Part shown: piece by piece, positions 9,885 to 32,021 of the stretch | Layout: the number at the start of each line of letters is the position of its first letter | How positions within the stretch are numbered: the first letter of the stretch is position 1 | Notes under the pieces: generated by a model | Database searches by the model: none | What the model was told of the DNA's origin: nothing | Seen by the model: only the letters and a program-made list of their open reading frames with translations | IMG/VR virus record: IMGVR_UViG_3300019487_000031 | Span: 1 to 64,000 of that record | Length of the DNA stretch: 64,000 nt | Reading direction: 5' to 3' (one strand) | Source: a virus | Program-made: the position numbers and the translations under genes

Positions 9885-11405
9885 ATGAAATTTAATGAAA
9901 ATGCAACAAAAGAAGAAGTTGTTAATTATATGGGCAAAAAAGCCTATAAACAATCCCCTAAAGAAGAACTAATTTTTGCCGTTTTAACCACTTTCATTGA
10001 AGATTCTTATTATGAAAACAAGACAGATCGTCTTGACCGAATTAAGTCTTTAGTTAAGGCCGCTGATCCTAAATTCGTTGCTAAGTTGGCAGTATACGCT
10101 AGAACAGTATTTCATATGCGGTCTGTGTTCGCCGTTTTAATTGGCGAACTTTCCAAAATTCACAAAGGAACTAGTCTTGTACGAAAAGCTATTGTACAAG
10201 GCGTAACTAGAGTAGATGATATTACTGAGATTGTTTCTTATTTAGGAGTTACTAATCCAATTCCTAATTCTGTAAAAAAAGGAATTAACGAGGCTCTTAA
10301 TAAATTCGATTCATATCATTTTGCGAAATATAGAGGAGAAAATAAAACTGTAAAACTAATAGATGTTGTTAATTTAACTCATCCTAAAGCTACTAATCCT
10401 AAAACGTCTGAAGCCCTTCGAAAACTCGTTAAAAATGAATTAAGAAATACAGATACTTGGGAATCCAAAATGTCAGGCGGACAAAGTGCTGCCTCAACTT
10501 TTAATGAATTGTTAGATTCTAATAAATTGGGATACATGGCACTTCTTAGAAATCTTCGTAATATCGCAAATACCGGAGATACTAATTTAGTTAAAAAAGT
10601 CGCAGCTATGATTAGTAATACAGAACAAGTTAAAAAATCTAAGCAGCTGCCTTTTCGTTTTCTGTCAGCTTTTGAAGCCTTGGAACAAAATACTGATTCT
10701 ACTGGGGTAGTTTTTGAAGAGGATTCAGATAATACTAATATTCTAAAAAATGCTGTAGAAGAAGCTCTAATGGTTTCTATTCAAAATATTCCACTTTTAA
10801 GTGGCAGAACGCTTATTTTGTCTGATAATTCAGGCTCAATGCATGGAGATAAAGGTGGAAATTCTTTAACTTCAGCCTATTCATCTAGAACTACTGCATC
10901 TATTGCGAATTTGTTTGCCGTATTATATTGGATGAGATCTGATAATACTTTTGTTGGACTTTTTGGCGATAGATTAATCACTCCGAAATTGGACCGAACT
11001 AAGTCAATTTTAACAAATTATAAAACTATTGCCCAATCATCTGGAGACTGTGGTTCTGGAACAGAGAGAGGAATTTTTGATGCCATAGAACTCCTTTTGC
11101 AGGAGAAAAAGAAAGTTGAACGGATTGTTATTTTTTCCGATTGTCAGGTTGGTGATGGTTGTGATTGGTATGACGATTATGGAAATAGAGGAGATAACTT
11201 TAATAAACTACTTAAGAAGTATCAAGAATTTAATCCTAACGTAAAAGTTTATACCGTGAATCTAAAAGGGTATAATAATGAAATGACTTCTCAAGGAAAT
11301 GTAATGAGACTTACTGGATGGAGTGATAAGATTTTTGATATTATGGAAAGAAATGAAATTGCCCCTGAAACTATGGTAAAAGAAGTTGAAACTATTGAAC
11401 TATGA
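9885..11405 (+). CDS. rsr: Ro60-like protein with a TROVE domain and a C-terminal vWA domain (MIDAS DxSxS)
   Basis: N-terminal FAVLTTFIEDSYYE and AKLAVYARTVFHMR resemble the Ro60 TROVE region (FLCFGSEGGTYY). C-terminal LILSDNSGSMHG is a vWA MIDAS motif. Length is 506 aa, typical of Ro60 orthologs. Confidence 0.65.
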   Translation: MKFNENATKEEVVNYMGKKAYKQSPKEELIFAVLTTFIEDSYYENKTDRLDRIKSLVKAADPKFVAKLAVYARTVFHMRSVFAVLIGELSKIHKGTSLVRKAIVQGVTRVDDITEIVSYLGVTNPIPNSVKKGINEALNKFDSYHFAKYRGENKTVKLIDVVNLTHPKATNPKTSEALRKLVKNELRNTDTWESKMSGGQSAASTFNELLDSNKLGYMALLRNLRNIANTGDTNLVKKVAAMISNTEQVKKSKQLPFRFLSAFEALEQNTDSTGVVFEEDSDNTNILKNAVEEALMVSIQNIPLLSGRTLILSDNSGSMHGDKGGNSLTSAYSSRTTASIANLFAVLYWMRSDNTFVGLFGDRLITPKLDRTKSILTNYKTIAQSSGDCGSGTERGIFDAIELLLQEKKKVERIVIFSDCQVGDGCDWYDDYGNRGDNFNKLLKKYQEFNPNVKVYTVNLKGYNNEMTSQGNVMRLTGWSDKIFDIMERNEIAPETMVKEVETIEL

Positions 11406-11529
11406 CATATTTACAAGAATTAAAAGAACGCCAAAGAAGATTGGCGCGCGGGTTCAGACGCGGCTAACGACATTAGAGACATTGAAGCCGAACAAGTTGG
11501 TTATGCTCAAGCTATGTTAGATAAAGCCG

Positions 11530-11979
11530 ATGATAAAACTTTGTACTGATTGTAATCAAGAAAAACCAGCAACTAAAGTTTTTTGGTATAAAAATACCGG
11601 AGGAAAACTAGGTTTTCGTTCTACTTGCAAAATTTGCACCAATAAAGATAATATAGCTAGGCATAAAAAATCTTCTAAAAAATGGGAACTAGCCAAACGA
11701 AACGGCGTTCTAAAAAGAAATTACGGAATTACACTGGAACAATATAATAAAATGTTAATGGAACAAGAAAGTTCTTGTTTAATCTGCCATACAAAAAGTT
11801 CTGGAAGAAAAAATAGTAAGCGTTTATGCGTCGATCATTCCCATAAAACCGGAAAAGTTAAAGGACTTTTATGCTCAATTTGTAATTCAATAATTGGATT
11901 TATCGAAAGGACTAATAATCCTTTGTTAACCGTAGAAAATATAGTAAAATACAGGGATAAATTAGATGAAAAATCTTGA
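11530..11979 (+). CDS. Endonuclease VII-type homing endonuclease (T4 gp49-like) with an N-terminal zinc finger
   Basis: CLICH...LCVDHSHKTGKVKGLLCSICNSIIG matches the endonuclease VII signature (C-x2-C ... DHDH.TG.VRGLLC..CN). Paralogous to 16944, 35198 and 37193. Confidence 0.75.
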   Translation: MIKLCTDCNQEKPATKVFWYKNTGGKLGFRSTCKICTNKDNIARHKKSSKKWELAKRNGVLKRNYGITLEQYNKMLMEQESSCLICHTKSSGRKNSKRLCVDHSHKTGKVKGLLCSICNSIIGFIERTNNPLLTVENIVKYRDKLDEKS

Positions 11980-16943: not shown

Positions 16944-17144
16944 TTGGCTGTAAGATATCGCAGCCCGGGAATAATGAATAGAAGTAATTACTCTAAACAT
17001 TTATCTGTTGATCATAATCATAAAACTAAACAAGTCAGAGGTTTATTATGCACCTCTTGTAATTCTGCACTTGGATTATTTAGAGAATCTGCTATAGTTT
17101 TAAAGGGCGCAATTAATTACTTGAAAAAATATGAGAAAAAATAA
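16944..17144 (+). CDS. Mini endonuclease VII-like protein (66 aa)
   Basis: LSVDHNHKTKQVRGLLCTSCNSALG matches the endonuclease VII core. It sits immediately upstream of the intein-containing primase-helicase. Confidence 0.55.
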   Translation: MAVRYRSPGIMNRSNYSKHLSVDHNHKTKQVRGLLCTSCNSALGLFRESAIVLKGAINYLKKYEKK

Positions 17145-20142
17145 AATGGAATATATTCGACTTTCAGAAAATTATAATATCAATTCTTTAATTCCAGTTT
17201 CAAGTTCTCCCTACGGTTTTATTAAAAATAAAGAACTTCCTTATTTTATATCCATGCTTAAATACAATGAAGAGCATTTTAAAATTTGGAAAAAAACTAA
17301 ATCTTTGAAAGGAATTTCTGGTGGTCTAACTAATAAAATTTGGTTTGATTTTGACAGCCATGAGGAATTATCTCTTTGTTTTTCCGATGCTGTAAAATGT
17401 GTAAAATTTCTTAAAACTTTAGATATTCCAGAAGAATGTATACAAATTTCCTTTTCAGGTAATAAAGGTATTGGACTTATTATTGAGACTGATACTGATT
17501 TTACAATCGAAGATATTCGAGCTTTTTGTATCGGGGTTTATAAAGAATTAACTTTGAAAACTTTTGATGTTAAAATGTACGATCACCAGCGCATTTTTCG
17601 TTTAGTTTTTACGAAACATGAAAAAACCGCGCGATATAAAATCCCACTTTCCTTAGAGGAACTCGAATTACAAAATATTCCTCAAATCCTTTCATTCGCT
17701 GAAAGTTTGGAACATTTTAATATTGACGATACCTTGGCTTATTACCAACCTTATAAAGTTACTAAAAAACTAACGGACAAAATTAATTCTTATAAAACCT
17801 TATCCCTTAAGAAGGATAAAACTAATTTATCCCCTATTGCGGATAATTTCATTGATTATTCTAATAAGCCTAAAGATTGGCGAAATTGTAAGTGGGCGAT
17901 TTTACAAGGACATTTTGCTGGTGGAGAACGTCACCAAGCTTTAACTATTATTGCTGCCACGGCTCGCGGATTAGGATATGATCGTGAAACCGCTTATTAT
18001 CTCTGTAAATCCGCTATTAAGAAACAAGCTAGACTTCATTCTCAAGAAGAATTTGATACTGACGAAGTATGGGAAAATATTCTAGAAAGCATTTATGCTC
18101 CCGATTGGAAGGGCGGCCAATATTCTTGTAAAACTGATTTATGGCTTCAAAACTATTGTGAACATCTTGGCGTTCATAAATGTCAAAATGATAAAGCGGT
18201 TAATCCCACAATTCAAATTGAAGAAGCTTATGGGCTTTTCAAAGACTATGCTGAAAATATTGACAAGCTAACTATTAAAACCGGCATTAATCCAATTGAT
18301 CATAATCTTAGAATGACTATTGGAATGTTGGTAGGACTTGTGGCTCCTGCGGGCGTCGGCAAATGTCTTGGAAAAGGTACTCCGATTTTAATGTATGATG
18401 GGACTATTAAAAACGTTGAGGATATTCACTCAGGCGATTTGTTAATGGGAGATGATTCAACTCCTCGTAAAGTATTAAGTACTTGTAGAGGACAAGAAAA
18501 TCTTTATGAAGTTCAACAAGAAACCGGAATGAACTATGTTGTCAATGAATCACACATTCTTTCATTAAAAGGTTCCTGGAAAACTAATAATAAAAGATTA
18601 AAATATATCCAATACGGAAATATTGTTGATATTGAAGTTAAAGAATATTTAAATAAAAGTAAGCAATTTAAACAATACATGAAAGGATACAGAGTTCCTA
18701 TTGAATTTCCTGAAAGTAACTTAGAACTTTCTCCATATTTTCTAGGCTATTGGATTGGGGATGGAACTACCGATAAATGCGAAATCACATTTGGCAAAAC
18801 TGATATTAATCATATTAAATGGTTTGAGAAGTTTGCTTTAGAAAATAATTGTTTTGTTACCAAATATCAAGATCGCGAATGTATGCGATTAAATTTTTCC
18901 GGAGCAAGAGGAGATAATATTGTTGCGAATAATCTTCCTAGTAATAAAACTATTCCTGAAAAATATCTTGTTAACTCTAGAAAAAATCGTTTAGAGCTAT
19001 TAGCCGGTATAATTGATTCAGATGGTCATTATAATAAATCTAGAAATATATATGAAATTATTACTAAATATGAAGAATTAGCTAATCAAATTCAAAATTT
19101 AGCATCACTTCTGGGATTTAGAAGCAAAATCTCTCTTAGTGAAAAATACTGTATTTATAAAAATGAAAAAAGAACTGGGTTGTATTATAGAGTTATTATT
19201 AAGGGTAATAACTTATATGAGATTCCGTGTAAAATTGAAAGAAAAATTTCTAGACCTATAGAACAACAAAGACATTATGATTTAAGTAAAGTTGAAGTAG
19301 TTTCAAAAGGCGTTGGGGATTATTACGGGTTTGAAATTGATGGAAACAAACGATTCGTTTTAAAAGATGGCACTGTAACGCATAACACCTCAATTTCCCT
19401 CCAAGTGCTTAATACTATGTCGAAAAATGACGAGCTTTGTTGTTTCTTCAGCTTTGATATGTTCCACGCTCTTGTATTCCAAAAGCTTGTTCAAAAACAC
19501 TTCCAAGTTGATCCAGAACATATTTTCGATTCCTTTAAAGCCAACCCTGAATATGGTCAACAAGTTATTGAACTACTTCAACAGGAATACAAAAATGTAG
19601 AGTTTTGTTTTGATGCTGGTCAAACCCCAGATCAAATTGCGCAAACTATTAAAATGGTTGAAGAGAAGCGCGGAAAGAAAGTTCGATTCATTGTAATTGA
19701 TTATAATGAGCTTGTACTATCTGATAAGTCAGATCCTACTGCGGCTTCCGCTTATGTTATTCAAAAGCTTCGTGAAATTGCTAATACTCAAAATCTTTGT
19801 GTTCTAGTATTGTTACAGCCTAACAAAATATCCGGCAATCCCTCAGAAGAGATTAATTCTTATCATGCGGCTAAAGGTTCGTCCGCAATCTCTCAAGCCG
19901 TTTCTATTATGCTAGGTGTTAATCGTCCAGGCTATGATCCAAAATATCCAGAAGATGATAAATTCATTACAGTTAATTGTTTAAAGAATCGAATGGGTAA
20001 GTTATTCTCAGTAGATTTACATTGGAATGGATTAACTGGAACCGTTCGAGAATTAACAGTTGAAGAAAAAGGTCATTTAAGAAATGTTCTAGCCCGGAAG
20101 GAAGAAGAGAAGAATAAAAAAGGCGGAGGCTGGATTGAATAA
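17131..20142 (+). CDS. Bifunctional primase-helicase (AEP/prim-pol-like N-terminus plus DnaB-family helicase) interrupted by an intein
   Basis: N-terminal WFDFDSHEE (DxD) and ISFSGNKGIG (AEP motif II-like). C-terminal DnaB-like motifs (FIVIDYNELV...). Walker A APAGVGK|TS is reconstituted after intein removal. Confidence 0.8.
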   Translation: MRKNKMEYIRLSENYNINSLIPVSSSPYGFIKNKELPYFISMLKYNEEHFKIWKKTKSLKGISGGLTNKIWFDFDSHEELSLCFSDAVKCVKFLKTLDIPEECIQISFSGNKGIGLIIETDTDFTIEDIRAFCIGVYKELTLKTFDVKMYDHQRIFRLVFTKHEKTARYKIPLSLEELELQNIPQILSFAESLEHFNIDDTLAYYQPYKVTKKLTDKINSYKTLSLKKDKTNLSPIADNFIDYSNKPKDWRNCKWAILQGHFAGGERHQALTIIAATARGLGYDRETAYYLCKSAIKKQARLHSQEEFDTDEVWENILESIYAPDWKGGQYSCKTDLWLQNYCEHLGVHKCQNDKAVNPTIQIEEAYGLFKDYAENIDKLTIKTGINPIDHNLRMTIGMLVGLVAPAGVGKCLGKGTPILMYDGTIKNVEDIHSGDLLMGDDSTPRKVLSTCRGQENLYEVQQETGMNYVVNESHILSLKGSWKTNNKRLKYIQYGNIVDIEVKEYLNKSKQFKQYMKGYRVPIEFPESNLELSPYFLGYWIGDGTTDKCEITFGKTDINHIKWFEKFALENNCFVTKYQDRECMRLNFSGARGDNIVANNLPSNKTIPEKYLVNSRKNRLELLAGIIDSDGHYNKSRNIYEIITKYEELANQIQNLASLLGFRSKISLSEKYCIYKNEKRTGLYYRVIIKGNNLYEIPCKIERKISRPIEQQRHYDLSKVEVVSKGVGDYYGFEIDGNKRFVLKDGTVTHNTSISLQVLNTMSKNDELCCFFSFDMFHALVFQKLVQKHFQVDPEHIFDSFKANPEYGQQVIELLQQEYKNVEFCFDAGQTPDQIAQTIKMVEEKRGKKVRFIVIDYNELVLSDKSDPTAASAYVIQKLREIANTQNLCVLVLLQPNKISGNPSEEINSYHAAKGSSAISQAVSIMLGVNRPGYDPKYPEDDKFITVNCLKNRMGKLFSVDLHWNGLTGTVRELTVEEKGHLRNVLARKEEEKNKKGGGWIE
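18364..19386 (+). mobile_element. Intein (341 aa) with a LAGLIDADG homing endonuclease domain, inserted in the helicase P-loop
   Basis: Starts CLGKGTPILMYDG (Cys1, block A) directly after GVGK. Contains LAGIIDSDGHY. Ends VTHN followed by Thr(+1). Splicing would give the canonical GVGKTS Walker A. In frame with the host ORF. Confidence 0.8.
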
Positions 20143-20707: not shown

Positions 20708-21316
20708 ATGAACAAAACAGCATCAAAGCCAAATCCAGTTTTTACAGTAGGGCATTCCAATCACTCGCTTGAACATTTTTTGGAGTTACTCAAACACCAT
20801 GAAATTACCACTGTGGCGGACGTGAGATCTCAACCGTACAGTCGATTTAGACCAATCTTTAATCGCGAAGCACTGGAGTCGGAGCTTAAAAAAAATCAGA
20901 TCGCATATGTTTTTCTGGGTAAAGAACTCGGTGCTCGTTCAAACGATTCGACCTGCTATGTGAACGGCAAGGTCAGCTACGAGCGACTTGCAAAGACATC
21001 CTTATTTAAAGATGGGATCAACCGAATTCTCAAAGGAGCAAAGAAGTTTCGCATTGCGTTGCTCTGTGCCGAAAAAGTCCCTCTCGACTGCCATCGCACC
21101 ATTCTTGTTAGCAGATACTTGGTAGAACGCGGAGTTGATGTGAGCCGTATTTTATCTGACGGTACGTTGGAAGCGCACGAAGACACGATGAGTAAACTTC
21201 TGGCAGAAACAGGAATTGGTTCCGCTCTTTTTGATTCAAGATCCGATCTTCTCGCAAAAGCCTATGAAGAACGAGGTAGTCAGATAGCATACAAATTGCC
21301 TTCAGAACCGAAGTGA
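20708..21316 (+). CDS. DUF488-family protein (copy 1) in GC-rich island 2
   Basis: The N-terminus VFTVGHSNHSLEHFLELL...TTVADVRSQPYS is the DUF488 signature. Local GC is much higher than in the flanks. Confidence 0.55.
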   Translation: MNKTASKPNPVFTVGHSNHSLEHFLELLKHHEITTVADVRSQPYSRFRPIFNREALESELKKNQIAYVFLGKELGARSNDSTCYVNGKVSYERLAKTSLFKDGINRILKGAKKFRIALLCAEKVPLDCHRTILVSRYLVERGVDVSRILSDGTLEAHEDTMSKLLAETGIGSALFDSRSDLLAKAYEERGSQIAYKLPSEPK

Positions 21317-21801
21317 CGAGAGGATGTGCGATGAAGATTTTTACAGTTGGATTCACCAAAACATCTGCTGAGTCTTTCTTTTCTCGCCTAAAGGAAAATG
21401 GCGTGCGGCAACTTCTCGATGTAAGACTGAACAATGCTTCGCAGCTTGCGGGTTTTGCTAAGAAAGATGATTTGCGGTTTTTTCTGAAATCCATTTGCGG
21501 AATTGAGTACGATCACGGGCCAGAACTAGCCCCGACTTCTGACATGCTCGATGAGTACAAAAAAAGGGGGGGTGGGCGCGCTTTCCACGCTCCTTGGAGA
21601 AACTTTTTGAGTTATAAATGTCAAATTTGCAATAAGCCCTTTCCTGATCAAGTTTTCTATGTTAAACTTCCTGGTCATGAATCTCCAGTTTGTGAGCATA
21701 TAGAACAAATCTTAGTTCATGAAGAAAAACAAAAACAGTTCCAAAAAAGTTTAAAGGATCCCACAAAAGGTTTTTATGAATATAGAGAAAAGTTTGAATG
21801 A
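21313..21801 (+). CDS. DUF488-family protein (copy 2) with an AT-rich C-terminal Cys/His extension. The junction lies at an A7G7 homopolymer tract
   Basis: MKIFTVGFTKTSAESFFSRL...LLDVRLNN is DUF488-like. The composition switches from GC-rich to AT-rich at 21559-21572 (AAAAAAAGGGGGGG), followed by CQICNK...HESPVCEH. Confidence 0.5.
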   Translation: MTRGCAMKIFTVGFTKTSAESFFSRLKENGVRQLLDVRLNNASQLAGFAKKDDLRFFLKSICGIEYDHGPELAPTSDMLDEYKKRGGGRAFHAPWRNFLSYKCQICNKPFPDQVFYVKLPGHESPVCEHIEQILVHEEKQKQFQKSLKDPTKGFYEYREKFE

Positions 21802-23326
21802 TCGTTTAATATATGGTAAAGCTTCTCAATCTCATATCGTTTCTATTGAATGTAAAGACGATAAGGCTATTCTTTTCTTAGAAACCCCCCAAGGTATAGA
21901 AACCAAAGAAGTTCCTAATAGATATTGGCTTCTCTCGCCCAAGCCTTATTACCCAGCCAAATGGCGTAAAATGGCCGGTAATCAATTCTTTCAGTATGGC
22001 AGGCAGTTCTCCTCACGCGAAGCCTTCCAACGCGCTAGAAGCTATTATAAGAAGAATGGCGACGTTTTTAGCGTTTGGAACGAAAAGGAAAGCTTCATGG
22101 TTCTTTTCGGCCATAGCTATTACCGTAATCTCGATATTAAGGATGTTTCTATATTATCCTTCGATATTGAAACTACATCATTAGATCCTAATGAACCTAA
22201 TGCTAAAGTTCTTTTAATCTCTAATACTTATCGTAAAGGCGGAAAAGTAGTTAGACAGCTATTTGCATATGATGATTACGATTCTCAAGAAGAAATGATT
22301 AAATCTTGGTGCAAAGTAGTTCGAGAATATAATCCTTCTATTTTATGTGGTCATAATATTTTCACCTTCGATTTGTATTATCTTAATGAAATTATGAAAC
22401 ATCATGGCGGATTAAAATTGGGCCGCGACGGATCTAATCTTCATTTTTCTAATTACGAATCCCTATTTCGCAAAGACCAAACCCAAAACATTTCATATAA
22501 AAAGGCTTTTATATATGGGCGTGAAATTTGCGACACTCTTTTTCTTTCTATAAAATTTGATATTGTTCAAAAGAAATACGATTCTTATGGATTGAAACAT
22601 ATTATTAATAGAGAAGGATTGGAAGATCCGAATCGTGTTTTTTATGATGCCGAACAAATTAGATTTAAATATCAAGATCTTAAAGAATGGGAAAAAATTA
22701 AAGAATATTGTAAAGGCGATTCGGATGATGCGTTAAAGCTTTTTGATTTAATGGCTCCTCCTTTCTTTTACCTCACGCGCTCAGTTCCTAAGTCTTTTCA
22801 GGAAATCATTTGCCGCGCCACGGGTTCGCAATTAAATTCTATGTTTGTTCGTAGCTATCTTCAAGAAGGGCATTCAATTCCCAAAGCTGATATTGGAAAA
22901 GAGTTTACTGGGGCGATTTCTTGGGGAAATCCGGGCATTTATTCTAATGCCATTAAATGGGATGTGGCGTCTCTGTATCCTTCTATTTGTTTACAATATG
23001 AGATTTATCCTAAACAAAAAGATCCTCAAAAGAACTTCTTGAAAATTTTAGAATATTTTACAAAAGAACGGCTTTCAAATAAAAAGATTGCACAAGAACA
23101 AAAAAGTAAATATCATAAGGATATATCTGAAGCCCAAAAACAAGTTTGTAATTCTGCTTATGGGATGTTAGCAACGAACGGATTAAACTTTAATAATTTT
23201 GAACAAGCTCAATTAATTACAAAACATGGCCAAGAAATTTTATGTAAGGCGATTAAATGGGCAACAGGAAAAGAATATGAAGAATGGAATCCAGAAGAAA
23301 ATGAAGAAGTTGAAACCGAAGATTGA
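21776..23326 (+). CDS. Family B DNA polymerase, N-terminal part (3'-5' exonuclease plus palm motifs A and B)
   Basis: Exo I SFDIETT. Motif A KWDVASLYPSI (DxxSLYPS). Motif B KQVCNSAYG (KxxxNSxYG). The ORF ends about 50 aa after motif B, with an acidic tail. Confidence 0.8.
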   Translation: MNIEKSLNDRLIYGKASQSHIVSIECKDDKAILFLETPQGIETKEVPNRYWLLSPKPYYPAKWRKMAGNQFFQYGRQFSSREAFQRARSYYKKNGDVFSVWNEKESFMVLFGHSYYRNLDIKDVSILSFDIETTSLDPNEPNAKVLLISNTYRKGGKVVRQLFAYDDYDSQEEMIKSWCKVVREYNPSILCGHNIFTFDLYYLNEIMKHHGGLKLGRDGSNLHFSNYESLFRKDQTQNISYKKAFIYGREICDTLFLSIKFDIVQKKYDSYGLKHIINREGLEDPNRVFYDAEQIRFKYQDLKEWEKIKEYCKGDSDDALKLFDLMAPPFFYLTRSVPKSFQEIICRATGSQLNSMFVRSYLQEGHSIPKADIGKEFTGAISWGNPGIYSNAIKWDVASLYPSICLQYEIYPKQKDPQKNFLKILEYFTKERLSNKKIAQEQKSKYHKDISEAQKQVCNSAYGMLATNGLNFNNFEQAQLITKHGQEILCKAIKWATGKEYEEWNPEENEEVETED

Positions 23327-23462
23327 AGTAAAAATTGAACGATGTATAGTTTGTAGTGGTCATGGGCGGTTATCTAATGAAGAAGGGTATTTAATAGACA
23401 TTTCATGTTCATTTTGCAAAGGAACTGGGGAAGTTGAAATAACTTATTACGACTATGATTAA
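23226..23462 (+). CDS. Small zinc-ribbon protein inside the polB-interrupting cassette. The likely true start is ATG 23301, overlapping the polB-N stop
   Basis: CIVCSGHG...CSFCKGTG (CxxC...CxxC). Ends in YYDYD* with the next ATG overlapping. Confidence 0.4.
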   Translation: MAKKFYVRRLNGQQEKNMKNGIQKKMKKLKPKIEVKIERCIVCSGHGRLSNEEGYLIDISCSFCKGTGEVEITYYDYD

Positions 23463-23817
23463 AGAAATAATTTTAGATAATGGATTTTATTCTATTATTC
23501 TTGAACATAAAGATGATAATTTGTATGTTGATTTTAAAGTTTATAGTATTTTCACAGTTTCAAAGGGGAGGAAACAATGGATTGAGTATCGGGATGAAGC
23601 CGATTTAAATAAAACAGTAGAAAATGTCGCCGAAGCTCTTCCATTAATTCAAGGTTATTTAAAATATGATGGTTGTATTAATTATACCTATCCTAGTCAA
23701 GAATGTTATATGCTTCATGGATGTTCTTTAGAACGCTTTCGATCTATTCTAAAAGTTTTTGAAGCTATTTATCGAGAATCTGCAAAATTAATGTCTACTG
23801 TTTACGACTATGATTAA
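23455..23817 (+). CDS. Hypothetical protein in the polB-interrupting cassette
   Basis: This ORF ends with VYDYD*, just as the upstream ORF does. The 18-nt junction TTACGACTATGATTAAAG is repeated at 23447-23464 and 23802-23819. Confidence 0.4.
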   Translation: MIKEIILDNGFYSIILEHKDDNLYVDFKVYSIFTVSKGRKQWIEYRDEADLNKTVENVAEALPLIQGYLKYDGCINYTYPSQECYMLHGCSLERFRSILKVFEAIYRESAKLMSTVYDYD

Positions 23818-24361
23818 AGTTATAGGCCCAAAAGATAAAAAGAAATATAAAAATTATATTAATGTTACGTCTTCAGGTTCAGACAGGTTTAAATTCCTTT
23901 CTCCATTTTTTCTCGGGCCTGTAAAACTTTATAATAATATTTATTCTAAAAATATGGAAAATGCCTGGCAATTTTCTAAAGTTTATAAAGAACATTTAGA
24001 TTTAAATGGTAATCCTTCAGAACAATATTTTAAATGGGCTAAAAAAGGTTGGAACGATTCTTGGGCTCATCGATATCCTATGGGAAAAAATAGAAAGCCT
24101 GAATATTCTTATTGGGATGGAAAGAAATTAGATTATTTACAAGGCCGCCAACAGATTTATATTCCTTTGTATTCTTCTTTAGTTGAAAAAACTGGTCAAT
24201 TTACTGATTTGGTTAACCGAGCAAAACAAAAAGAAGATATAATTATATTTGATTATGATGGTTATTCGGATTATGATACACTTGAAGAAGTTACTAAGAA
24301 TCCTAATCGTAAAATGGGCCATGGATTTGTTTTAGCTTTATGTATAATTTCACGCTTATAA
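23810..24361 (+). CDS. Divergent NADAR (DUF1768)-like protein in the polB-interrupting cassette
   Basis: RFKFLSPFFLGPVKLYNNIYSKNMENAWQFSKV resembles the NADAR N-terminal signature (F.FLSNF.....G..Y.S.EHAYQA.K). The later LVEKTG is compatible with the NADAR C-terminal half. Weaker than the NADAR at 30139. Confidence 0.35.
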   Translation: MIKVIGPKDKKKYKNYINVTSSGSDRFKFLSPFFLGPVKLYNNIYSKNMENAWQFSKVYKEHLDLNGNPSEQYFKWAKKGWNDSWAHRYPMGKNRKPEYSYWDGKKLDYLQGRQQIYIPLYSSLVEKTGQFTDLVNRAKQKEDIIIFDYDGYSDYDTLEEVTKNPNRKMGHGFVLALCIISRL

Positions 24362-25008
24362 ACTGCGACACCGATTCTATTACTATTAGTAAACCCGATA
24401 ATTCCCCTTTCTCCGTTCAAGAACAACAAAAGCTTTTAAAAGAACTTAACTCTTTATTTCCTGAAAAGATTTCTTGGGCGGACGATGGGTATTTCCAAAA
24501 GGTTATTGTATTCAAGGCTAAGAATTATATTTTATGGGATGGGGAAAAGATTAAGTCCAAAGGTTCGGCTCTAAAGGATGGTAAAAAAGAACAAGCTCTT
24601 AAAGATTTTATTCAAGAAACAGTTCAAGCGATTTTAAACGATAAAGAAAACTTTCAAGAAATCTATCATAAATATATTAAAGAAGCTTTGGATATTAAAG
24701 ATATTAAAAGATGGAGTTCCAGAAAAACCCTAACACATAAGACTTATAGTTCTTCTCGTCCAAATGAAACAAAAGTTATTGATGCGATTAAAGGGACTGA
24801 TTATAAAAATGGTGATAGAATCTGGACATTTTTTAAAGAAGATGGTTCTTTAGAACTTGTGGAAAATTTTAATGGTGAATATGATAAAATGGTTATGGTG
24901 AAAAAAGTATTCACGACTAGTAAATTATTTGCTTCTGTATTGGATCATAAGATGATATACTTGAACTATTCTTTGAAGAAAAATTTAGAGGCTCTAGAAA
25001 AACTATGA
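24340..25008 (+). CDS. Family B DNA polymerase, C-terminal part (motif C plus KKRY/thumb)
   Basis: INCDTDSITI is motif C (DTDS) 10 aa from the ATG. KAKNYILWDGEKIKSKG is the KKRY-like motif. Confidence 0.75.
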   Translation: MYNFTLINCDTDSITISKPDNSPFSVQEQQKLLKELNSLFPEKISWADDGYFQKVIVFKAKNYILWDGEKIKSKGSALKDGKKEQALKDFIQETVQAILNDKENFQEIYHKYIKEALDIKDIKRWSSRKTLTHKTYSSSRPNETKVIDAIKGTDYKNGDRIWTFFKEDGSLELVENFNGEYDKMVMVKKVFTTSKLFASVLDHKMIYLNYSLKKNLEALEKL

Positions 25009-25710: not shown

Positions 25711-26499
25711 ATGAAATCCCTACCAGATAATATTAAAACTCTTCCTGAACTATCTTCCCAATCTATTCTATTGTCCTATAGAGGTTCCATTGCTCATAAT
25801 CTATATCAACCTTCCAATGAACCCAATTCTATTGATGATATTGATTTAATGGGAATTTGTGTTCCTGAAGTTTCTTATTACTTCGGCTTAGATAAATTCG
25901 CCCCCCGAGATACAAAAGAAATGTTTATTGATGAATGGGATATCGTTTGTTATGAACTTAGAAAGTTTGTATATCTTTTAATGAAGGGAAATCCTAATGT
26001 CATTTCAATGCTTTATTTAAAGCCGGAACATTATTTAGTAAAGCATCCAGCGGCTGAACTTTTAATTGAAAACAGAGCTTTATTTAATTCCCACGAGATT
26101 TATCATTCATTTATTGGCTATGCCAAAGCTCAACTTTATAAAACGGAACATATGGTCTTCAAAGGCTATATGGGAGAAAAAAGAAAGAAACTTGTTGAGA
26201 AGTTTGGATATGATACTAAAAATGCCGGGCATCTTATTAGATTAATGATGATGTGTAATGAATGGTTAGTTGAAAAAAACTTTGAGGTTTATCGGGATTT
26301 TGACCGTCAATTTCTTTTAAATATTAAAAACGGGATATACTCTTTAGATCAGATTAAAGAAATGGCGGCTAATTTATTTACAAAAGGAGAAGCTCTTTTT
26401 AAAGCACAACAAAAAACTATTCCAGAAACGGTTGATACTAAAGCTGTAAATGAATTGTTATTGGAAATGTATAAGAAAATTGATTGGGTGAAATTATGA
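25711..26499 (+). CDS. Pol-beta-superfamily nucleotidyltransferase (KNTase-like: NTase N-domain plus helical C-domain)
   Basis: SYRGSIAHNLYQPSNEPNSIDDIDLMGI fits the GS...DxD nucleotidyltransferase motif. The C-terminal half is all-helical. Confidence 0.4.
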   Translation: MKSLPDNIKTLPELSSQSILLSYRGSIAHNLYQPSNEPNSIDDIDLMGICVPEVSYYFGLDKFAPRDTKEMFIDEWDIVCYELRKFVYLLMKGNPNVISMLYLKPEHYLVKHPAAELLIENRALFNSHEIYHSFIGYAKAQLYKTEHMVFKGYMGEKRKKLVEKFGYDTKNAGHLIRLMMMCNEWLVEKNFEVYRDFDRQFLLNIKNGIYSLDQIKEMAANLFTKGEALFKAQQKTIPETVDTKAVNELLLEMYKKIDWVKL

Positions 26500-27065: not shown

Positions 27066-28055
27066 ATGAACTTTCTTCCGAAAAATGATGGGATAGATCA
27101 TATTAATATTTATTCCCAAGGTCAAACCAAGATCGGCCAACTCCTTTCTAATTTCGCACATACCCCTTTTCGCGTTCCTTTAATGGGAACTTTCCAATCC
27201 GTCGAGGGGTTTTGGTATTATTGTTTAATCGGGAAAAAGGAATTAAAAAATCTTGTTGGATTTGAAGCTAAGCAATTCGGGAAACGGCATTTAAAAATTA
27301 AAGATACTGTTGATTCTAGATTACTGGAAATTGCCTATAGAGCCAAATTAAGAGATAATCTTTACATCATTCCAAAATTGCTATTGATGCTTCATTCTAA
27401 GTTACAAATTGCCCACTATTACGTTTATGGTGGTAAAGCGGTAACCCCGAAAGAATTTCAATGGATCGCTGAGTTATGGAAAGAAATTCCTATTAACATT
27501 CTTCCTACAAAAGATAAAGTTTTTAGAGCTTTAACTTATTTCAAACCACAACAAACCAAAGCTATTATCATAGGCCAAGATCCGTACCCGAATCCAGAGG
27601 ATGCTTGCGGGCTTGCTTTTTCTGTAGAACATAATAAACCCCCCGCTTCTTTAAAAAATATCTTTAAAGAACTTAAAACCGATTTAAATATTAATTCCCC
27701 CAAAACGGGAAATCTAGAGCCGTGGGCGAAACAAGGAGTTCTTCTTTTGAATTCAGTTCTTACTACGGAGAAAGGAAAATCCGGAGCGCATAAAAATATT
27801 GGCTGGGAAGAAATTACAACTAATACAATTCAAAAAGCTTTAGATTGTAAACAACCAATAGTTATTATCGCTTGGGGTTTTGACGCAAAGAAAAAGCTTG
27901 AAACTTTAAAATTACATGATAAAGTATTGGTATTAACGGGCGGTCATCCGTCCCCGTTAAATACTTCTGTTTCTTTTTTGGGCGGCAAATATTTTTCTAA
28001 GGCCAATGCATTTTTAAATACGAACGGGATTAAAGAAATTGACTGGAGATTATAA
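27066..28055 (+). CDS. ung: Uracil-DNA glycosylase (family 1) fused to an unrecognised 130-aa N-terminal domain
   Basis: AIIIGQDPYPNPEDACGLAFSV is the GQDPY water-activating loop, and GGHPSPLNTSVSFLGGKYFSKAN is the HPSPLS motif. The first 130 aa show no recognisable motif. Confidence 0.8.
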   Translation: MNFLPKNDGIDHINIYSQGQTKIGQLLSNFAHTPFRVPLMGTFQSVEGFWYYCLIGKKELKNLVGFEAKQFGKRHLKIKDTVDSRLLEIAYRAKLRDNLYIIPKLLLMLHSKLQIAHYYVYGGKAVTPKEFQWIAELWKEIPINILPTKDKVFRALTYFKPQQTKAIIIGQDPYPNPEDACGLAFSVEHNKPPASLKNIFKELKTDLNINSPKTGNLEPWAKQGVLLLNSVLTTEKGKSGAHKNIGWEEITTNTIQKALDCKQPIVIIAWGFDAKKKLETLKLHDKVLVLTGGHPSPLNTSVSFLGGKYFSKANAFLNTNGIKEIDWRL

Positions 28056-28377: not shown

Positions 28378-29502
28378 ATGAGAGAATATAAACACGCCAT
28401 TTTCATTGGCCGATTTCAACCGTTCCATAACGGCCATTACGAAGTCCTAAAACAGGCCCTAGAAATTGCCGACACGGTTCTTGTATTAGTCGGTTCTTAT
28501 AAAGTCTCTACAAATATTAAAAATCCTTTTACGTTTGAAGAACGAGTTCAAATGATTCAATCGGTTATTGATGACCGCACTTATGAATATCCTTCTCCAG
28601 ATCAAGCAGTAACTATTGGCGGGGAACTTTTAAAGCGCGTTAAATTTATCCCCGTTCGTGATCATTATAATAACGATAACTTTTGGATTACAGAGGTTCA
28701 GCATAAAGTTTCTGAATATGTAACTGAAAACGAAACAGTTGCATTAGTGGGAAATTATAAAGATGCAAGTAGTTATTATTTAAATCTTTTCCCGCAATGG
28801 GAATTTGTGCCCACAGAACAAAGTTCTAGGCTTTCCGCTACCCAAATCCGCACCATTCTTTTTAAACGCAGTTCTAAAATCCAAGACTTTAACCCATATC
28901 GTCCTGTAACTACCTACGATTCTTTACTTGATCAATCATACGAAAGCATGATTCCATTTAAAATTAATGAGTGGATGATTAAAAACTACTTTAAAACTGA
29001 AAAATACCATAAACACGTAGAAGAATACCAATTTATAGAAAAATATAAGGAACAATGGTCAAATGCTCCTTTTCCTCCCGTTTTTATGACCACGGATTGC
29101 GTTGTAGTATGCTCAGGACACGTTCTTGTCGTGGAACGCGGGTTCAACCCCGGAAAAGGTCAATTGGCGCTTCCTGGGGGCTTTTTAAAGCAAACTGAAG
29201 CTCTTGAGGATGGGGCTTTAAGAGAACTTAAAGAAGAAACGGGTATTTCTATAGATAAGCTAATATTAAAGAATTGTATTGCAGATAAGCGTATTTTTGA
29301 TTATCCTGGTAGGAGTTTAAGAGGAAGAACGATTACTCAAGCTTTCTATATTAGGCTTAAAGATGGGGCTCTTCCAAAACTTAGAGCCGGAGATGATGCT
29401 AATAAAGCAATATGGATTTCTTTAAATGAAGTATCTTCTAAAGAAGAACTGTTTTTTGAAGACCATGCACATATTATTAATTATTTCATTCGGAGAGATT
29501 AA
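28378..29502 (+). CDS. nadM: Bifunctional NMN adenylyltransferase / Nudix hydrolase (NadM-Nudix, phage NatV-like)
   Basis: IFIGRFQPFHNGH is the (H/T)xGH nucleotidyltransferase motif. The C-terminal Nudix box is LPGGFLKQTEALEDGALRELKEETGI (GX5EX7REUXEEXGU). Confidence 0.8.
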   Translation: MREYKHAIFIGRFQPFHNGHYEVLKQALEIADTVLVLVGSYKVSTNIKNPFTFEERVQMIQSVIDDRTYEYPSPDQAVTIGGELLKRVKFIPVRDHYNNDNFWITEVQHKVSEYVTENETVALVGNYKDASSYYLNLFPQWEFVPTEQSSRLSATQIRTILFKRSSKIQDFNPYRPVTTYDSLLDQSYESMIPFKINEWMIKNYFKTEKYHKHVEEYQFIEKYKEQWSNAPFPPVFMTTDCVVVCSGHVLVVERGFNPGKGQLALPGGFLKQTEALEDGALRELKEETGISIDKLILKNCIADKRIFDYPGRSLRGRTITQAFYIRLKDGALPKLRAGDDANKAIWISLNEVSSKEELFFEDHAHIINYFIRRD

Positions 29503-29646
29503 ATGAAGGGAGATTGTCCGGAATGTGGTTCTATGGAAGTTGATTTATATTTTTTAGGAGAAGGTCCTTATACTCCAGAATCTTTCTATTGGCGCGCCGA
29601 TTGTGAATGGTGCGATAATTATAATTCACAAGAAAACGAAGAATAA
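29503..29646 (+). CDS. Small zinc-ribbon protein (47 aa)
   Basis: MKGDCPECGS...RADCEWCDNY (CxxC...CxxC), placed between the NMNAT-Nudix and macro genes. Confidence 0.35.
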   Translation: MKGDCPECGSMEVDLYFLGEGPYTPESFYWRADCEWCDNYNSQENEE

Positions 29647-30152
29647 TGGGACTTGAATATAAAAAAATGTCTTTATTTGATGCGCCGGAAGGTTCAATTA
29701 TTGTCCATGCTTGTAATGCTCAAGGAAGTTGGAATTCTGGAATTGCTAAAGAATTTAAAGAAAGATATCCAAGATCTTTTCAACATTATGAAGAATATTG
29801 TAGATTAAATCCTCGCCATTTAAAAGTTGGACGAGGAAAATTACTTTCTTCAACTATAGAACATAAGCATAAAGTTGGTATACTTATTACTTCAAATAAA
29901 TACGGCGCAGAAAAAGATCCTAAAGAACTTATTAAAATTCAGACAACTCTAGCAATAAATCAACTTTTAGAAACTAATCTTGCCGCGCATGGACGAAATC
30001 CAAGCGTTAAAGGAATTATATATTCTAATAAATTTAATTCAGGACTTTTTAAAGTTCCTTGGAAAGAAACTGAATTGATTTTGACAACGGTTTTAAAACA
30101 CTATTCATGGATTACTTGGATAGTTTGCGATCCTAATCATGAGACAGACTGA
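29646..30152 (+). CDS. Macro domain protein (ADP-ribose binding/hydrolase)
   Basis: SIIVHACNAQGSWNSGIAKEF resembles the macro-domain N-terminal signature (VNAAN...GGGVDGAI). Confidence 0.65.
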   Translation: MGLEYKKMSLFDAPEGSIIVHACNAQGSWNSGIAKEFKERYPRSFQHYEEYCRLNPRHLKVGRGKLLSSTIEHKHKVGILITSNKYGAEKDPKELIKIQTTLAINQLLETNLAAHGRNPSVKGIIYSNKFNSGLFKVPWKETELILTTVLKHYSWITWIVCDPNHETD

Positions 30153-30651
30153 TAAATATCTTTTCTTTTATGGCGGGTTTTTAAGCCAATGGTATCTTTG
30201 TAAGTTTAATGATTGGTTACGTGATTATAATTGTGCGGAACAATGTATGATGGCTCAAAAGGCTTTACTTTTTGAAGATATTAAATCATTTGATTATATT
30301 ATGAAAGAAACCAACCCGGCTTTCCAAAAAGCACGAGGAAGAAAAATTGAGGGATTTAATCAAGAAAAATGGGATTTGTTTAAAGAAGCCATTGTTTGTA
30401 GTGCCAATTATTTGAAGTTTGCACAAAATAAAACACTTCGAAAGAAATTGTTAGATACTAAAGATTTAATATTGGTAGAAGCTAGTCCATATGATAAAAT
30501 ATGGGGAATTGGATTATCAGAAAATAATCCATTGGCAGATGATGAAAAGAATTGGAAAGGTCAAAACCTTTTAGGAAAAGTTTTAATGAAAGTTAGAGAA
30601 AGTTTAAAAAATGTAGATGAACAATTGAGTTCATTGAATAATAAGGAGTAA
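30139..30651 (+). CDS. NADAR (DUF1768, YbiA-like) ADP-ribose-processing domain protein
   Basis: YLFFYGGFLSQWYLCKF...CAEQCMMAQKA plus LKFAQNKTLRKKLLDTKDLILVEASPYDKIWGIGLS track the E. coli YbiA signatures (FYS..DDYGDFSNF...SEHYFQAQKF ... LLATAPAKLVEHTENDAYWGDG). Confidence 0.8.
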   Translation: MRQTDKYLFFYGGFLSQWYLCKFNDWLRDYNCAEQCMMAQKALLFEDIKSFDYIMKETNPAFQKARGRKIEGFNQEKWDLFKEAIVCSANYLKFAQNKTLRKKLLDTKDLILVEASPYDKIWGIGLSENNPLADDEKNWKGQNLLGKVLMKVRESLKNVDEQLSSLNNKE

Positions 30652-30653
30652 AA

Positions 30654-32021
30654 ATGGAAAATCTAATTCTTGACGTCGATAGTTATAAGTTCTCACATTG
30701 GCTTCAATATCCTGCCAATACATCATACATGTTCTCATATCTTGAAAGTCGTGGAGGAAAGTATTCAAATACACTTTTCTTCGGACTTCAATATCTTATT
30801 AAACAACATTTGACTAAGCCTATTACTCCTGCGATGGTTGAAGAAGCGAAACTTTTTGCTGAAGCGCATGGCGAGCCGTTTAATTATGAAGGCTGGATGT
30901 ATATTGCAAAAGATCTTAAAGGAAAGCTTCCTATTCGTATTAGAGCGGTGGCTGAAGGCGCTGTAGTTCCTACTAGTAATATCCTAATGTCTGTTGAATC
31001 AACTGATCCTAAAGTATTTTGGGTTGTATCCTTCTTTGAAACCCTTTTAATGCGAGTTTGGTATCCTATTACTGTAGCTACTCAATCCTTTCATATTAAA
31101 AAGCTTATTAAGAGTTATTTGGAAAAGACTTCTGATGATGCAAACGCTGAAATTAGTTTTAAGCTTCATGACTTTGGAAGTCGCGGCGTTTCTTCTCAGG
31201 AATCGGCAGGAATTGGCGGGGCGGCGCATCTTGTAAATTTCTTGGGTTCTGATACAGTCGCGGGCGTTTATTATGCCAATCATTTCTATAATAATAAAAT
31301 GGCAGGCTTTTCTATTCCCGCGGCTGAACACTCCACTATGACTATGTGGGGGAGAGAAAATGAAGTCGAAGCATACAGAAATATGCTAAAGCAATATGCA
31401 AAGCCCGGGGCTTTAGTTGCTGTTGTATCAGATTCGTATGATCTTTATAATGCGGTTGAAAATCTTTGGGGAGGAACTCTTAAAGATGAGGTTGTAAATT
31501 CTGGAGCTATTGTTGTAATTCGTCCAGATTCCGGCAATCCTCCTGAAGTAGTTCTTAAAACTCTTCAGCTTCTTGAATCCAAGTTTGGAGTTACTTATAA
31601 TAAGAAGGCTTATAAAGTTTTAAATAATGTTAGAGTAATTCAAGGGGATGGAATTAATGAGGAATCTATTCGTCAAATTCTAGAAGTTGCCACTTCTTAT
31701 GGATACTCGGCTTCTAATATTGCATTTGGAATGGGTGGTGCTCTTTTACAACAAGTTAATCGCGATACTCAAAAGTTCGCCTTTAAATGTTCTGCGGCGC
31801 GAGTTGACGGAAAACTTGTTCCGGTCTTTAAAAGTCCTAAGACTGATCTTGGAAAACAATCTAAGAAAGGTTTATTGGATTTGGTTCTAAAAGGTAATAA
31901 GTTTGAAACGGTTGAAGGATTGGATAATGTTGGTTCTGTATTAAAGGTTGTTTATGAAAATGGACAACTTATAAAAGAACAAACATTGGATGAAATCAGA
32001 AAGAGATCAAACGAGTTTTAA
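30654..32021 (+). CDS. nadV: Nicotinamide phosphoribosyltransferase (NAMPT/NadV)
   Basis: The N-terminus NLILDVDSYKFSHW matches the NAMPT signature (TDSYK.TH). The 455-aa length is typical. Confidence 0.8.
   Translation: MENLILDVDSYKFSHWLQYPANTSYMFSYLESRGGKYSNTLFFGLQYLIKQHLTKPITPAMVEEAKLFAEAHGEPFNYEGWMYIAKDLKGKLPIRIRAVAEGAVVPTSNILMSVESTDPKVFWVVSFFETLLMRVWYPITVATQSFHIKKLIKSYLEKTSDDANAEISFKLHDFGSRGVSSQESAGIGGAAHLVNFLGSDTVAGVYYANHFYNNKMAGFSIPAAEHSTMTMWGRENEVEAYRNMLKQYAKPGALVAVVSDSYDLYNAVENLWGGTLKDEVVNSGAIVVIRPDSGNPPEVVLKTLQLLESKFGVTYNKKAYKVLNNVRVIQGDGINEESIRQILEVATSYGYSASNIAFGMGGALLQQVNRDTQKFAFKCSAARVDGKLVPVFKSPKTDLGKQSKKGLLDLVLKGNKFETVEGLDNVGSVLKVVYENGQLIKEQTLDEIRKRSNEF

Follow-up and report, generated by a model that had tools for sequence, protein, structure and literature searches.

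A family B DNA polymerase encoded in two pieces in uncultured phages: a probable two-subunit enzyme with an endonuclease-prone split site that serves as a slot for accessory genes

Is a family B DNA polymerase (PolB) that is encoded in two open reading frames (ORFs), with motifs A and B in the first and motif C in the second, an enzyme of two subunits, a gene whose parts are joined again by splicing, or a gene in decay? This question is posed by a locus in a stretch of viral DNA of 64,000 nucleotides (nt), positions 1 to 64,000 of the IMG/VR record IMGVR_UViG_3300019487_000031, which is referred to here in its full length as the window. A preliminary description of the window had offered a genuinely split two-subunit PolB, a cargo insertion, and an unusual intron as explanations. 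The first two are both supported by the present analysis and represent two aspects of one thing; the third is rejected. Overall, the locus probably harbors a two-subunit family B polymerase, i.e., a "gene in pieces," whose endonuclease-prone split site has turned into a slot for accessory genes. Four assemblies made independently from three or more samples reproduce the region with 99.96 to 100% identity, including both copies of a short repeat (see below), and an assembly artifact is therefore excluded.

Anatomy of the two polymerase genes

The locus consists of five co-oriented ORFs without spacers, two of which encode the polymerase:

21776..23326, + strand: PolB-N, 516 amino acids, 60.5 kDa; N-terminal domain, 3'-5' exonuclease, first part of the palm with motif A, fingers with motif B, and one palm helix
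23277..23462, + strand: zinc-finger ORF, 61 amino acids with two CxxCxGxG motifs; its start lies inside the 3' end of PolB-N
23455..23817, + strand: ORF120, 120 amino acids; bracketed by two 18-nt repeats
23810..24361, + strand: DUF6939 gene, 183 amino acids, match to Pfam DUF6939 (7e-11); its last 22 nt overlap the start of PolB-C
24340..25008, + strand: PolB-C, 222 amino acids, 25.9 kDa, with its own ATG; beta-strand with motif C, KxY motif, and thumb

All coordinates given in the preliminary description, which had assigned Exo I to III and motifs A and B to the first polymerase ORF and the DTDS and KxY motifs to the second, proved to be correct. PolB-N contains Exo I (FDIETT, residues 129 to 134), Exo II (GHNIFTFDL, 192 to 200), Exo III (YCKGDSDD, 311 to 318), motif A (DVASLYPS, 396 to 403), and motif B (KQVCNSAYG, 455 to 463), and it is recognized by the Pfam models DNA_pol_B_exo1 (2.6e-14) and DNA_pol_B (5e-7) as well as by a PHROG model for DNA polymerase (2.4e-39). 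At least 1,924 homologues of this half were found, and in the 30 that were checked residue by residue D130/E132, N194/D199, Y311/D315, D396/Y401, and K455/N459 are invariant. PolB-C carries DTDS at residues 10 to 13 and KAKNY at residues 59 to 63, and D10, T11, D12, K61, N62, and Y63 are invariant across the 21 C halves that were compared. Taken alone, it matches no Pfam or PHROG model, and a tblastn search of GenBank phages with it returned no match. It is collinear with the C-terminal third of single-ORF homologues (37 to 68% identity), shares 42 to 68% identity with stand-alone C halves and 30 to 56% with the C-terminal part of fused homologues, and is called as a 222-amino-acid gene in public assemblies. 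The two ORFs together thus comprise Exo I to III and motifs A, B, C, and KxY in the order and spacing that are normal for a family B polymerase, and the single polypeptide typical of the family is replaced by a stop of the N half at 23326 and an ATG of the C half at 24340.

An alignment of the fused homologue P0014 with KOD polymerase runs through the junction and includes motif C and the KKKY region; the P0014 segment IKWAEEN-GFKICNVDTDS is the counterpart of IKEIEEKYGFKVIYSDTDG in KOD. By this alignment, the break falls in a surface loop of the palm that connects a palm helix to the beta-strand of motif C, 9 to 10 residues before DTD. The "classic pol-c site" of the preliminary description was hence approximately right, with the correction that the break does not lie inside motif C. 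Its statement that the spacing between motifs B and C is normal also holds, but the value of about 60 amino acids must be lowered to a homologous spacing of about 53 amino acids, since the extra residues belong to a tail and a head outside the homologous region. PolB-N ends with WATGKEY followed by a 15-residue acidic tail (EEWNPEENEEVETED), and PolB-C starts with a 3-residue head (MYN). In the subclade of the window, the tail is conserved as Y-E-E-W-N-P plus acidic residues.

From this anatomy we infer that PolB is made as two separately translated polypeptides, the 60.5-kDa N piece and the 25.9-kDa C piece, which would associate noncovalently and form a two-metal site from motif A of the one and motif C of the other. 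Association would be obligatory because the metal-binding aspartates of the two motifs reside on different chains, and the acidic tail of the N piece may help in docking. The conservation of both halves across the split lineages, together with the invariant catalytic residues, indicates purifying selection on a working enzyme.

The 1,013 nt between the stop of PolB-N and the start of PolB-C are all coding and comprise the three + strand ORFs listed above. The zinc-finger ORF and ORF120 overlap by 8 nt, ORF120 and the DUF6939 gene by another 8 nt, and the DUF6939 gene and PolB-C by 22 nt. Promoter-like and terminator-like sites did not exceed the shuffled expectation, which is consistent with one transcription unit. 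The five genes are presumably cotranscribed, with the translation of PolB-C coupled to that of the DUF6939 ORF.

The split site in related phages

The relatives of the polymerase were recovered from IMG/VR by an alignment-based scan, as a scan with the single protein gave no match. A set of 68 IMG/VR loci and several Logan contigs, designated here by numbers with the prefix L, was fetched, and both halves were located in each. The clade consists of large, uncultured phages of about 70 to 90 kb. Near-identical DNA was not found among GenBank phages, whose nearest cultured representatives, the Salinibacter and Nostoc/Anabaena phages, have distant (27 to 30% identity) and uninterrupted polymerases. 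Four of seven bins of metagenome-assembled genomes were assigned to Bacteroidota, which is too weak for a host inference.

Among the 120 nearest protein clusters at 90% identity, 74 contain an N half only (480 to 535 amino acids, with the stop 1 to 25 residues after W-A-T-G-K-x-Y) and 41 are fused (691 to 760 amino acids). The alignment with related polB genes that the preliminary description had proposed accordingly revealed both states: 35 of the 71 loci having both halves are split, always at the same codon, and the remaining 36 are uninterrupted. About half of the clade therefore has a PolB that is cut at exactly this codon, and the C half of split loci always starts with M-x-(Y/H)-N-F-x-L-x-N-x-DTDS. 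An essential gene is thus divided into two ORFs at a position where relatives have it intact, as is characteristic of genes in pieces. The space between the halves takes the following forms:

Overlapping stop and start codons (-4 to -62 nt), nothing between: 10 loci
86 to 344 nt, with a small ORF or none: 9 loci
464 to 707 nt, with exactly one ORF: 9 loci
1,013 nt: the window
1.6 to 3.8 kb, with several genes: L076, L003, L073/74, and L077/78
Halves unlinked: L012/L116

The unlinked case is IMGVR_UViG_3300020049_005939, in which an intact C gene of 224 amino acids (L116, 254-928, with its own ATG and DTDS) is located 8.1 kb upstream of the N gene (L012, 7001-8539), on the same strand and in C-then-N order. 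The usual downstream neighbors, i.e., the genes for a dCMP deaminase and an AAA ATPase, directly follow the N gene in L012. Overlapping stop and start codons in some loci and unlinked halves in reversed order in another mean that cis-splicing of RNA or protein cannot be required.

The fused genes also vary at this position. A compact form reads W-A-x4-[FY]-x-[ILV]-[IV]-N-x-DTDS, and an expanded form contains an insertion of 25 to 40 amino acids that resembles an N tail, a linker, and a C head (L041, L042, L044, L047, L048, L053, L056, L057, L060, L062, and L066). The presence of both forms identifies the site as a hypervariable, insertion-tolerant loop. A neighbor-joining tree of the PolB N halves shows the split and the fused state intermingled, a pattern that elements with horizontal spread and repeated loss would be expected to produce. 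The subclade of the window (L003, L004, L005, L008, and L073 to L076) is uniformly split, with gaps of 200 to 3,117 nt and differing content. The split is much older than the present content of the gap, which differs in every close relative, and the impression of the preliminary description that the whole block 23327-24339 is one insertion is not supported.

The key to the origin of the split is provided by genes that occupy the site in relatives and are invisible from the sequence of the window alone. Single ORFs for free-standing homing endonucleases of three unrelated families, defined by Pfam, PHROGs, all-against-all BLAST, and a profile match to PacI, were found at the same site in at least 15 related loci:

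GIY-YIG with NUMOD3 (Pfam 1e-6 to 7e-9; PHROG homing endonuclease 1e-30): L025, L038, L052, L072, L118, and L120/122
HNH family A: L004, L011, L065, and L073/74
HNH family B, with an I-HmuI-like C-terminal domain: L040, L063, and L119

The two HNH families match PHROGs for HNH/endonuclease VII (1e-9 to 1e-17), and their best PDB profile match is PacI. An endonuclease ORF between the pieces, a further hallmark of genes in pieces, is thus present in these relatives and absent from the window. The site lies about 30 nt from the highly conserved coding sequence of motif C and is in this respect a typical homing target. In L073 (4524-4610) and L074 (2932-3018), an 87-nt duplicate of the 3' end of polN (residues 482 to 510, 69% identity to the window) is located just after the HNH gene and looks like a repair scar from the insertion of the endonuclease. 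On these grounds, an endonuclease gene, or a mutation in an expanded loop, would most likely have turned the gene into two cistrons.

PolB-C of L053 (8591-9996) and of L132 (2928-4333) is interrupted a second time, around residues 99 to 109, by about 780 nt, which may represent a second insertion site in the same polymerase.

The polymerase could also have become a two-subunit enzyme without an endonuclease, e.g., by loop expansion followed by a nonsense or frameshift mutation and an internal start, and the gap would then have been colonized later by endonucleases and cargo. In favor of this course of events, which we consider possible and rather unlikely, 10 loci are split without any insert, and endonucleases of the same families are also found immediately upstream of polN or downstream of polC in other loci, which might reflect a preference for any intergenic gap in this region. 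The same caveat has been raised for gene 43 of T4-like phages with respect to phage 44RR versus phage 25 (PMC2988022). Several observations weigh against an endonuclease origin. The 11 fused loci with expanded loops look like joined tails, linkers, and heads; long-loop fused homologues could likewise stem from a refusion of the two genes; the neighbor-joining tree is crude; and the window has neither an endonuclease gene nor a recognizable remnant, so that an endonuclease origin for its lineage is deduced from relatives. The occurrence of three unrelated endonuclease families at exactly this codon, the proximity to motif C, the duplication beside the HNH gene of L073/74, and the interleaving of states in the tree nevertheless argue for the endonuclease-mediated split.

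A group I or group II intron with internal ORFs, spliced to give one polymerase, is highly improbable. Its position between conserved motifs of an essential gene would be that of known phage polymerase introns, and the two halves follow each other in the right order and orientation. However, a scan of 22800-24900 with Rfam 15 at E<=10, which covers the group I covariance search suggested in the preliminary description, detected no intron family and merely six chance-level hits to unrelated families. The overlapping ORFs of the gap could not accommodate a ribozyme core, each half has a translation signal of its own at the break (a stop behind the nonhomologous tail of the N half and a conserved ATG in the C half), and the relatives with overlapping codons or unlinked halves are at odds with an intron.

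Ligation of the halves after translation by a split intein, as in the PolB of Nanoarchaeum, has an equally slim chance. Polymerase genes are classic intein hosts, and the same phage has a full intein in its DnaB helicase. However, the 15 nonhomologous residues of the N tail and the 3 of the C head are far too few, and the search that detects the DnaB intein (2.4e-18) found no Hint or Hom_end match in the five ORFs. A decaying pseudogene, broken by the insertion and replaced in replication by another enzyme, would account for the lack of Pfam and PHROG matches of PolB-C alone, but this is scarcely credible, given that all catalytic motifs are intact, that in dozens of split lineages the halves are 40 to 68% identical and the active-site residues are invariant, that most of the nearest relatives have the split form, and that no other polymerase was seen in a nonexhaustive check of the large ORFs of the window.

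Genes in the gap and in its neighborhood

Having turned into an intergenic gap within an essential, well-expressed operon, the split site would have become a slot in which genes come and go. In the lineage of the window, the endonuclease gene would be gone and three packed cargo genes, probably cotranscribed and translationally coupled, would have taken its place. The preliminary description had stated that the block encodes no HNH, GIY-YIG, or LAGLIDADG enzyme; none of these signatures was detected in the three ORFs with Pfam and PHROGs, and it is the relatives that carry HNH and GIY-YIG enzymes there. A search for the three ORFs in more than 130 related loci showed that the DUF6939 gene alone recurs.

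The start of the zinc-finger ORF is ambiguous (23226, 23277, or 23301, corresponding to 78, 61, or 53 amino acids); public gene calls use 23277. Its matches to Pfam DnaJ_CXXCXGXG (3e-3) and to the PHROG "anti-termination Q-like" (8e-5) are weak, and no homologue was found in any related locus. An interpretation of this ORF as a remnant of an HNH endonuclease was rejected, as no similarity to HNH endonucleases was found. ORF120 belongs to a sparse family of 129 distant members, which range from 71 to 374 amino acids (most of them 105 to 160) except for one protein of 1,058 amino acids whose match is short and partial. It has no Pfam family and only a marginal match to a PHROG of unknown function. 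Invariant Gly-Cys and His-x-Cys residues in the pattern KWDGC...H.C suggest a metal site. The predicted fold, a beta-sheet with a long helix (pLDDT 92.8), has no informative structural neighbor.

ORF120 is bracketed by the two copies of an 18-nt repeat, which the preliminary description had recognized as an identical motif at both internal gene junctions:

23447..23464, + strand: repeat copy 1, TTACGACTATGATTAAAG; end of the zinc-finger ORF (..YDYD-stop) overlapping Met-Ile-Lys of ORF120
23802..23819, + strand: repeat copy 2, TTACGACTATGATTAAAG; end of ORF120 (..YDYD-stop) overlapping Met-Ile-Lys of the DUF6939 gene

The copies are exact and the only two in the window (two or more hits in 0 of 100 shuffles); extended identity amounts to 24 of 28 nt and the spacing to 355 nt. 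A native M-I-(K) start occurs in members of both the ORF120 and the DUF6939 families, and an aromatic-D-(G/Y)-D end is frequent in relatives of ORF120, which indicates that the right half of the repeat is native to both genes and that its left half stems from the ORF120 terminus. In the simplest reading, the repeat looks like a scar of short-homology recombination, at which ORF120 was inserted or could be deleted. The 18-mer junction is absent from the fetched related loci and from IMG/VR, and no variant lacking ORF120 occurs among the four near-identical assemblies. Four matches of the 18-mer in JGI metagenomes are all unrelated chance hits with a different GC content and no shared genes.

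The third ORF had been called NADAR-like, which is right at the level of the fold and does not extend to a match with the Pfam family NADAR (PF08719). DUF6939 is its sole Pfam family, and an hhalign comparison with the window's own canonical NADAR gave no signal (probability of 0.15). The predicted protein has the NADAR fold and is a divergent NADAR-fold protein. It differs from the NADAR proteins of Escherichia coli (YbiA), Geobacter lovleyi, and Phytophthora in its own conserved motifs ENAWQ, RYPMGK, DFDGYD, and GH.FVL. In at least four lineages, among them the window, L073/74, and L077 to L079, the DUF6939 gene immediately precedes PolB-C, and in the window and in L077 to L079 it overlaps the start of PolB-C.

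The cargo in the split of relatives shares a theme. L073/74 contain Macro, RlaP, and then DUF6939, followed by a gap of 215 nt before PolB-C; L076 contains RlaP and an ABA sandwich protein; and L077 to L079 contain NMNAT-Nudix, NAMPT, and then DUF6939. In the window, genes of these kinds are located just downstream of PolB-C:

25711..26499, + strand: RlaP nucleotidyltransferase ("RNA repair pathway"); L073/74 and L076 have it between the PolB halves
28378..29502, + strand: NMNAT-Nudix, part of the NAD+/ADP-ribose module
29646..30152, + strand: Macro, part of the NAD+/ADP-ribose module
30139..30651, + strand: canonical NADAR (Pfam PF08719, 6.8e-49)
30654..32021, + strand: NAMPT, part of the NAD+/ADP-ribose module

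The module 28378..32021 comprises an NAD+ reconstitution pair of the NARP2 type and two genes of the ADP-ribose hydrolase type. NMNAT-Nudix and NAMPT encode NARP2, a phage pathway for NAD+ reconstitution (bioRxiv 10.1101/2024.02.11.579819), NADARs undo the ADP-ribosylation of DNA bases and serve as antitoxins to DarT (PMC11543638, PMC11125620), and phages use antitoxin-like hydrolases against DarTG (PMC11825919). NAMPT is 81 to 84% identical between the window and L077/78 and PolB-N only about 50%; the module therefore moves between these phages. Alongside RlaP, the window also encodes a TROVE (Ro60-like) protein (9885..11405, + strand).

Given its NADAR fold and the repeated occurrence of its gene beside those for NAMPT, NMNAT-Nudix, and Macro, the DUF6939 protein probably acts on substrates derived from NAD+ or ADP-ribose, in phage counter-defense. 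Its lack of sequence-profile similarity to Pfam NADAR weighs against this. A more far-reaching conjecture, to which we attach a small chance, is that the palm-loop split of PolB is exploited as an expression slot for NAD+/ADP-ribose counter-defense genes. DUF6939 might then work with the replisome, stripping DarT-type ADP-ribose adducts from phage DNA or processing NAD+ breakdown products, and the production of a polymerase subunit would be tied to that of a repair or salvage enzyme.

The surroundings of the locus show further rearrangements. Two tandem DUF488 genes (20708..21316 and 21313..21801, + strand) directly precede PolB-N, the second overlapping its start; their GC content of 0.41 compared with about 0.33 elsewhere and their absence from all related loci point to a probably recent acquisition. 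L003 has PolB-C joined to a UDG-superfamily domain (10371-11714, 436 amino acids), the fused polymerase ORF of L051 continues to the end of a UDG-like match, and a UDG-like gene lies immediately downstream in L022, L025, and L032; the homologue in the window (27066..28055) has 329 amino acids. The DnaB-like replicative helicase of the window (17131..20142, + strand, 1,003 amino acids) contains a full intein with Hint and LAGLIDADG domains (Pfam Hom_end_hint at residues 412 to 499, 2.4e-18; LAGLIDADG_3 and Hom_end at 608 to 697; DnaB_C at 753 to 967), and the helicases of relatives have 644 to 652 amino acids without an intein. A second replication gene of the phage has thus been invaded by a selfish element.

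Significance and comparison with known systems

So far, split family B polymerases have been described for a few T4-like phages and a single archaeon. The present clade offers a natural series of fused, loop-expanded, overlapping split, endonuclease-occupied, cargo-loaded (up to about 3.8 kb), and unlinked forms. It bears on the questions of how selfish endonucleases turn an essential gene into a two-subunit enzyme, how a composite polymerase active site assembles from two chains, and how a gap becomes a landing pad for anti-defense cargo (NAD+ reconstitution, Macro, and NADAR-fold proteins). For annotation, it is relevant that PolB-C halves escape Pfam and PHROG models, that N-only polymerases may be misread as truncated, and that DUF6939 is flagged as a NADAR-fold family with an NAD+/ADP-ribose context. 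No paper on the PolB split of this clade or on DUF6939 was found in the literature, which is not proof of absence.

The closest counterpart is the split gene 43 (43A/43B) of the T4-related Aeromonas and Acinetobacter phages 25, 44RR, 31, 65, and 133; as summarized from Petrov et al. (2006, 2010) in two later papers, the gp43 cistrons are spaced by 2 bp to 3 kb, and phage 25 has a free-standing seg-type homing endonuclease gene between them (PMC2988022, PMC3061061). The split gp43 subunits of phage 25 copurify and are active (PMC2988022). Both cases concern a phage family B polymerase in two cistrons with a hypervariable site and an intervening endonuclease gene, in the present clade in relatives of the window. 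The gp43 break, however, is located at the finger tip, between two finger helices and upstream of motif B, whereas the break described here lies in the palm, after motif B. A different phage clade, three endonuclease families, and a multigene NAD+/ADP-ribose cargo further set the present case apart.

The PolB of Methanothermobacter thermautotrophicus consists of two subunits that are encoded by unlinked genes and broken in the palm near motif C, and this break is reported about 83 residues C-terminal of Pfu 467/468 (Kelman et al. 1999, cited in PMC3061061). The unlinked halves resemble those of L012/L116; the archaeal system differs in that no endonuclease or cargo is associated with it. By our own estimate, motif C presumably lies between the archaeal break and the one described here. 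Pfu PolB retains full activity when it is made as two fragments by termination and reinitiation (PMC3061061).

Insertions of endonuclease genes have also split nrdA in Aeromonas phage Aeh1 (by mobE) and gene 60/39 in T4 (by mobA), and the split NrdA of Aeh1 is functional (PMC2988022, PMC3045599). As is proposed for the present clade, an inserted free-standing endonuclease gene splits a conserved part of an essential gene, and the products reassemble into a working enzyme. Compared with nrdA/mobE, the host gene is another one, and unrelated cargo stands in the window where an endonuclease gene would have been. Inteins at the polymerase motifs (pol-a, pol-b, and pol-c) and split inteins are likewise selfish elements that target conserved polymerase motifs. 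The break described here is near motif C rather than in it, and the locus differs from polymerase inteins in that it neither contains a Hint domain nor could accommodate one.

Split family B polymerases are thus already known in kind. New are the palm-loop site just before motif C, the uncultured phage clade, the three endonuclease families, and the slot for NAD+/ADP-ribose cargo.

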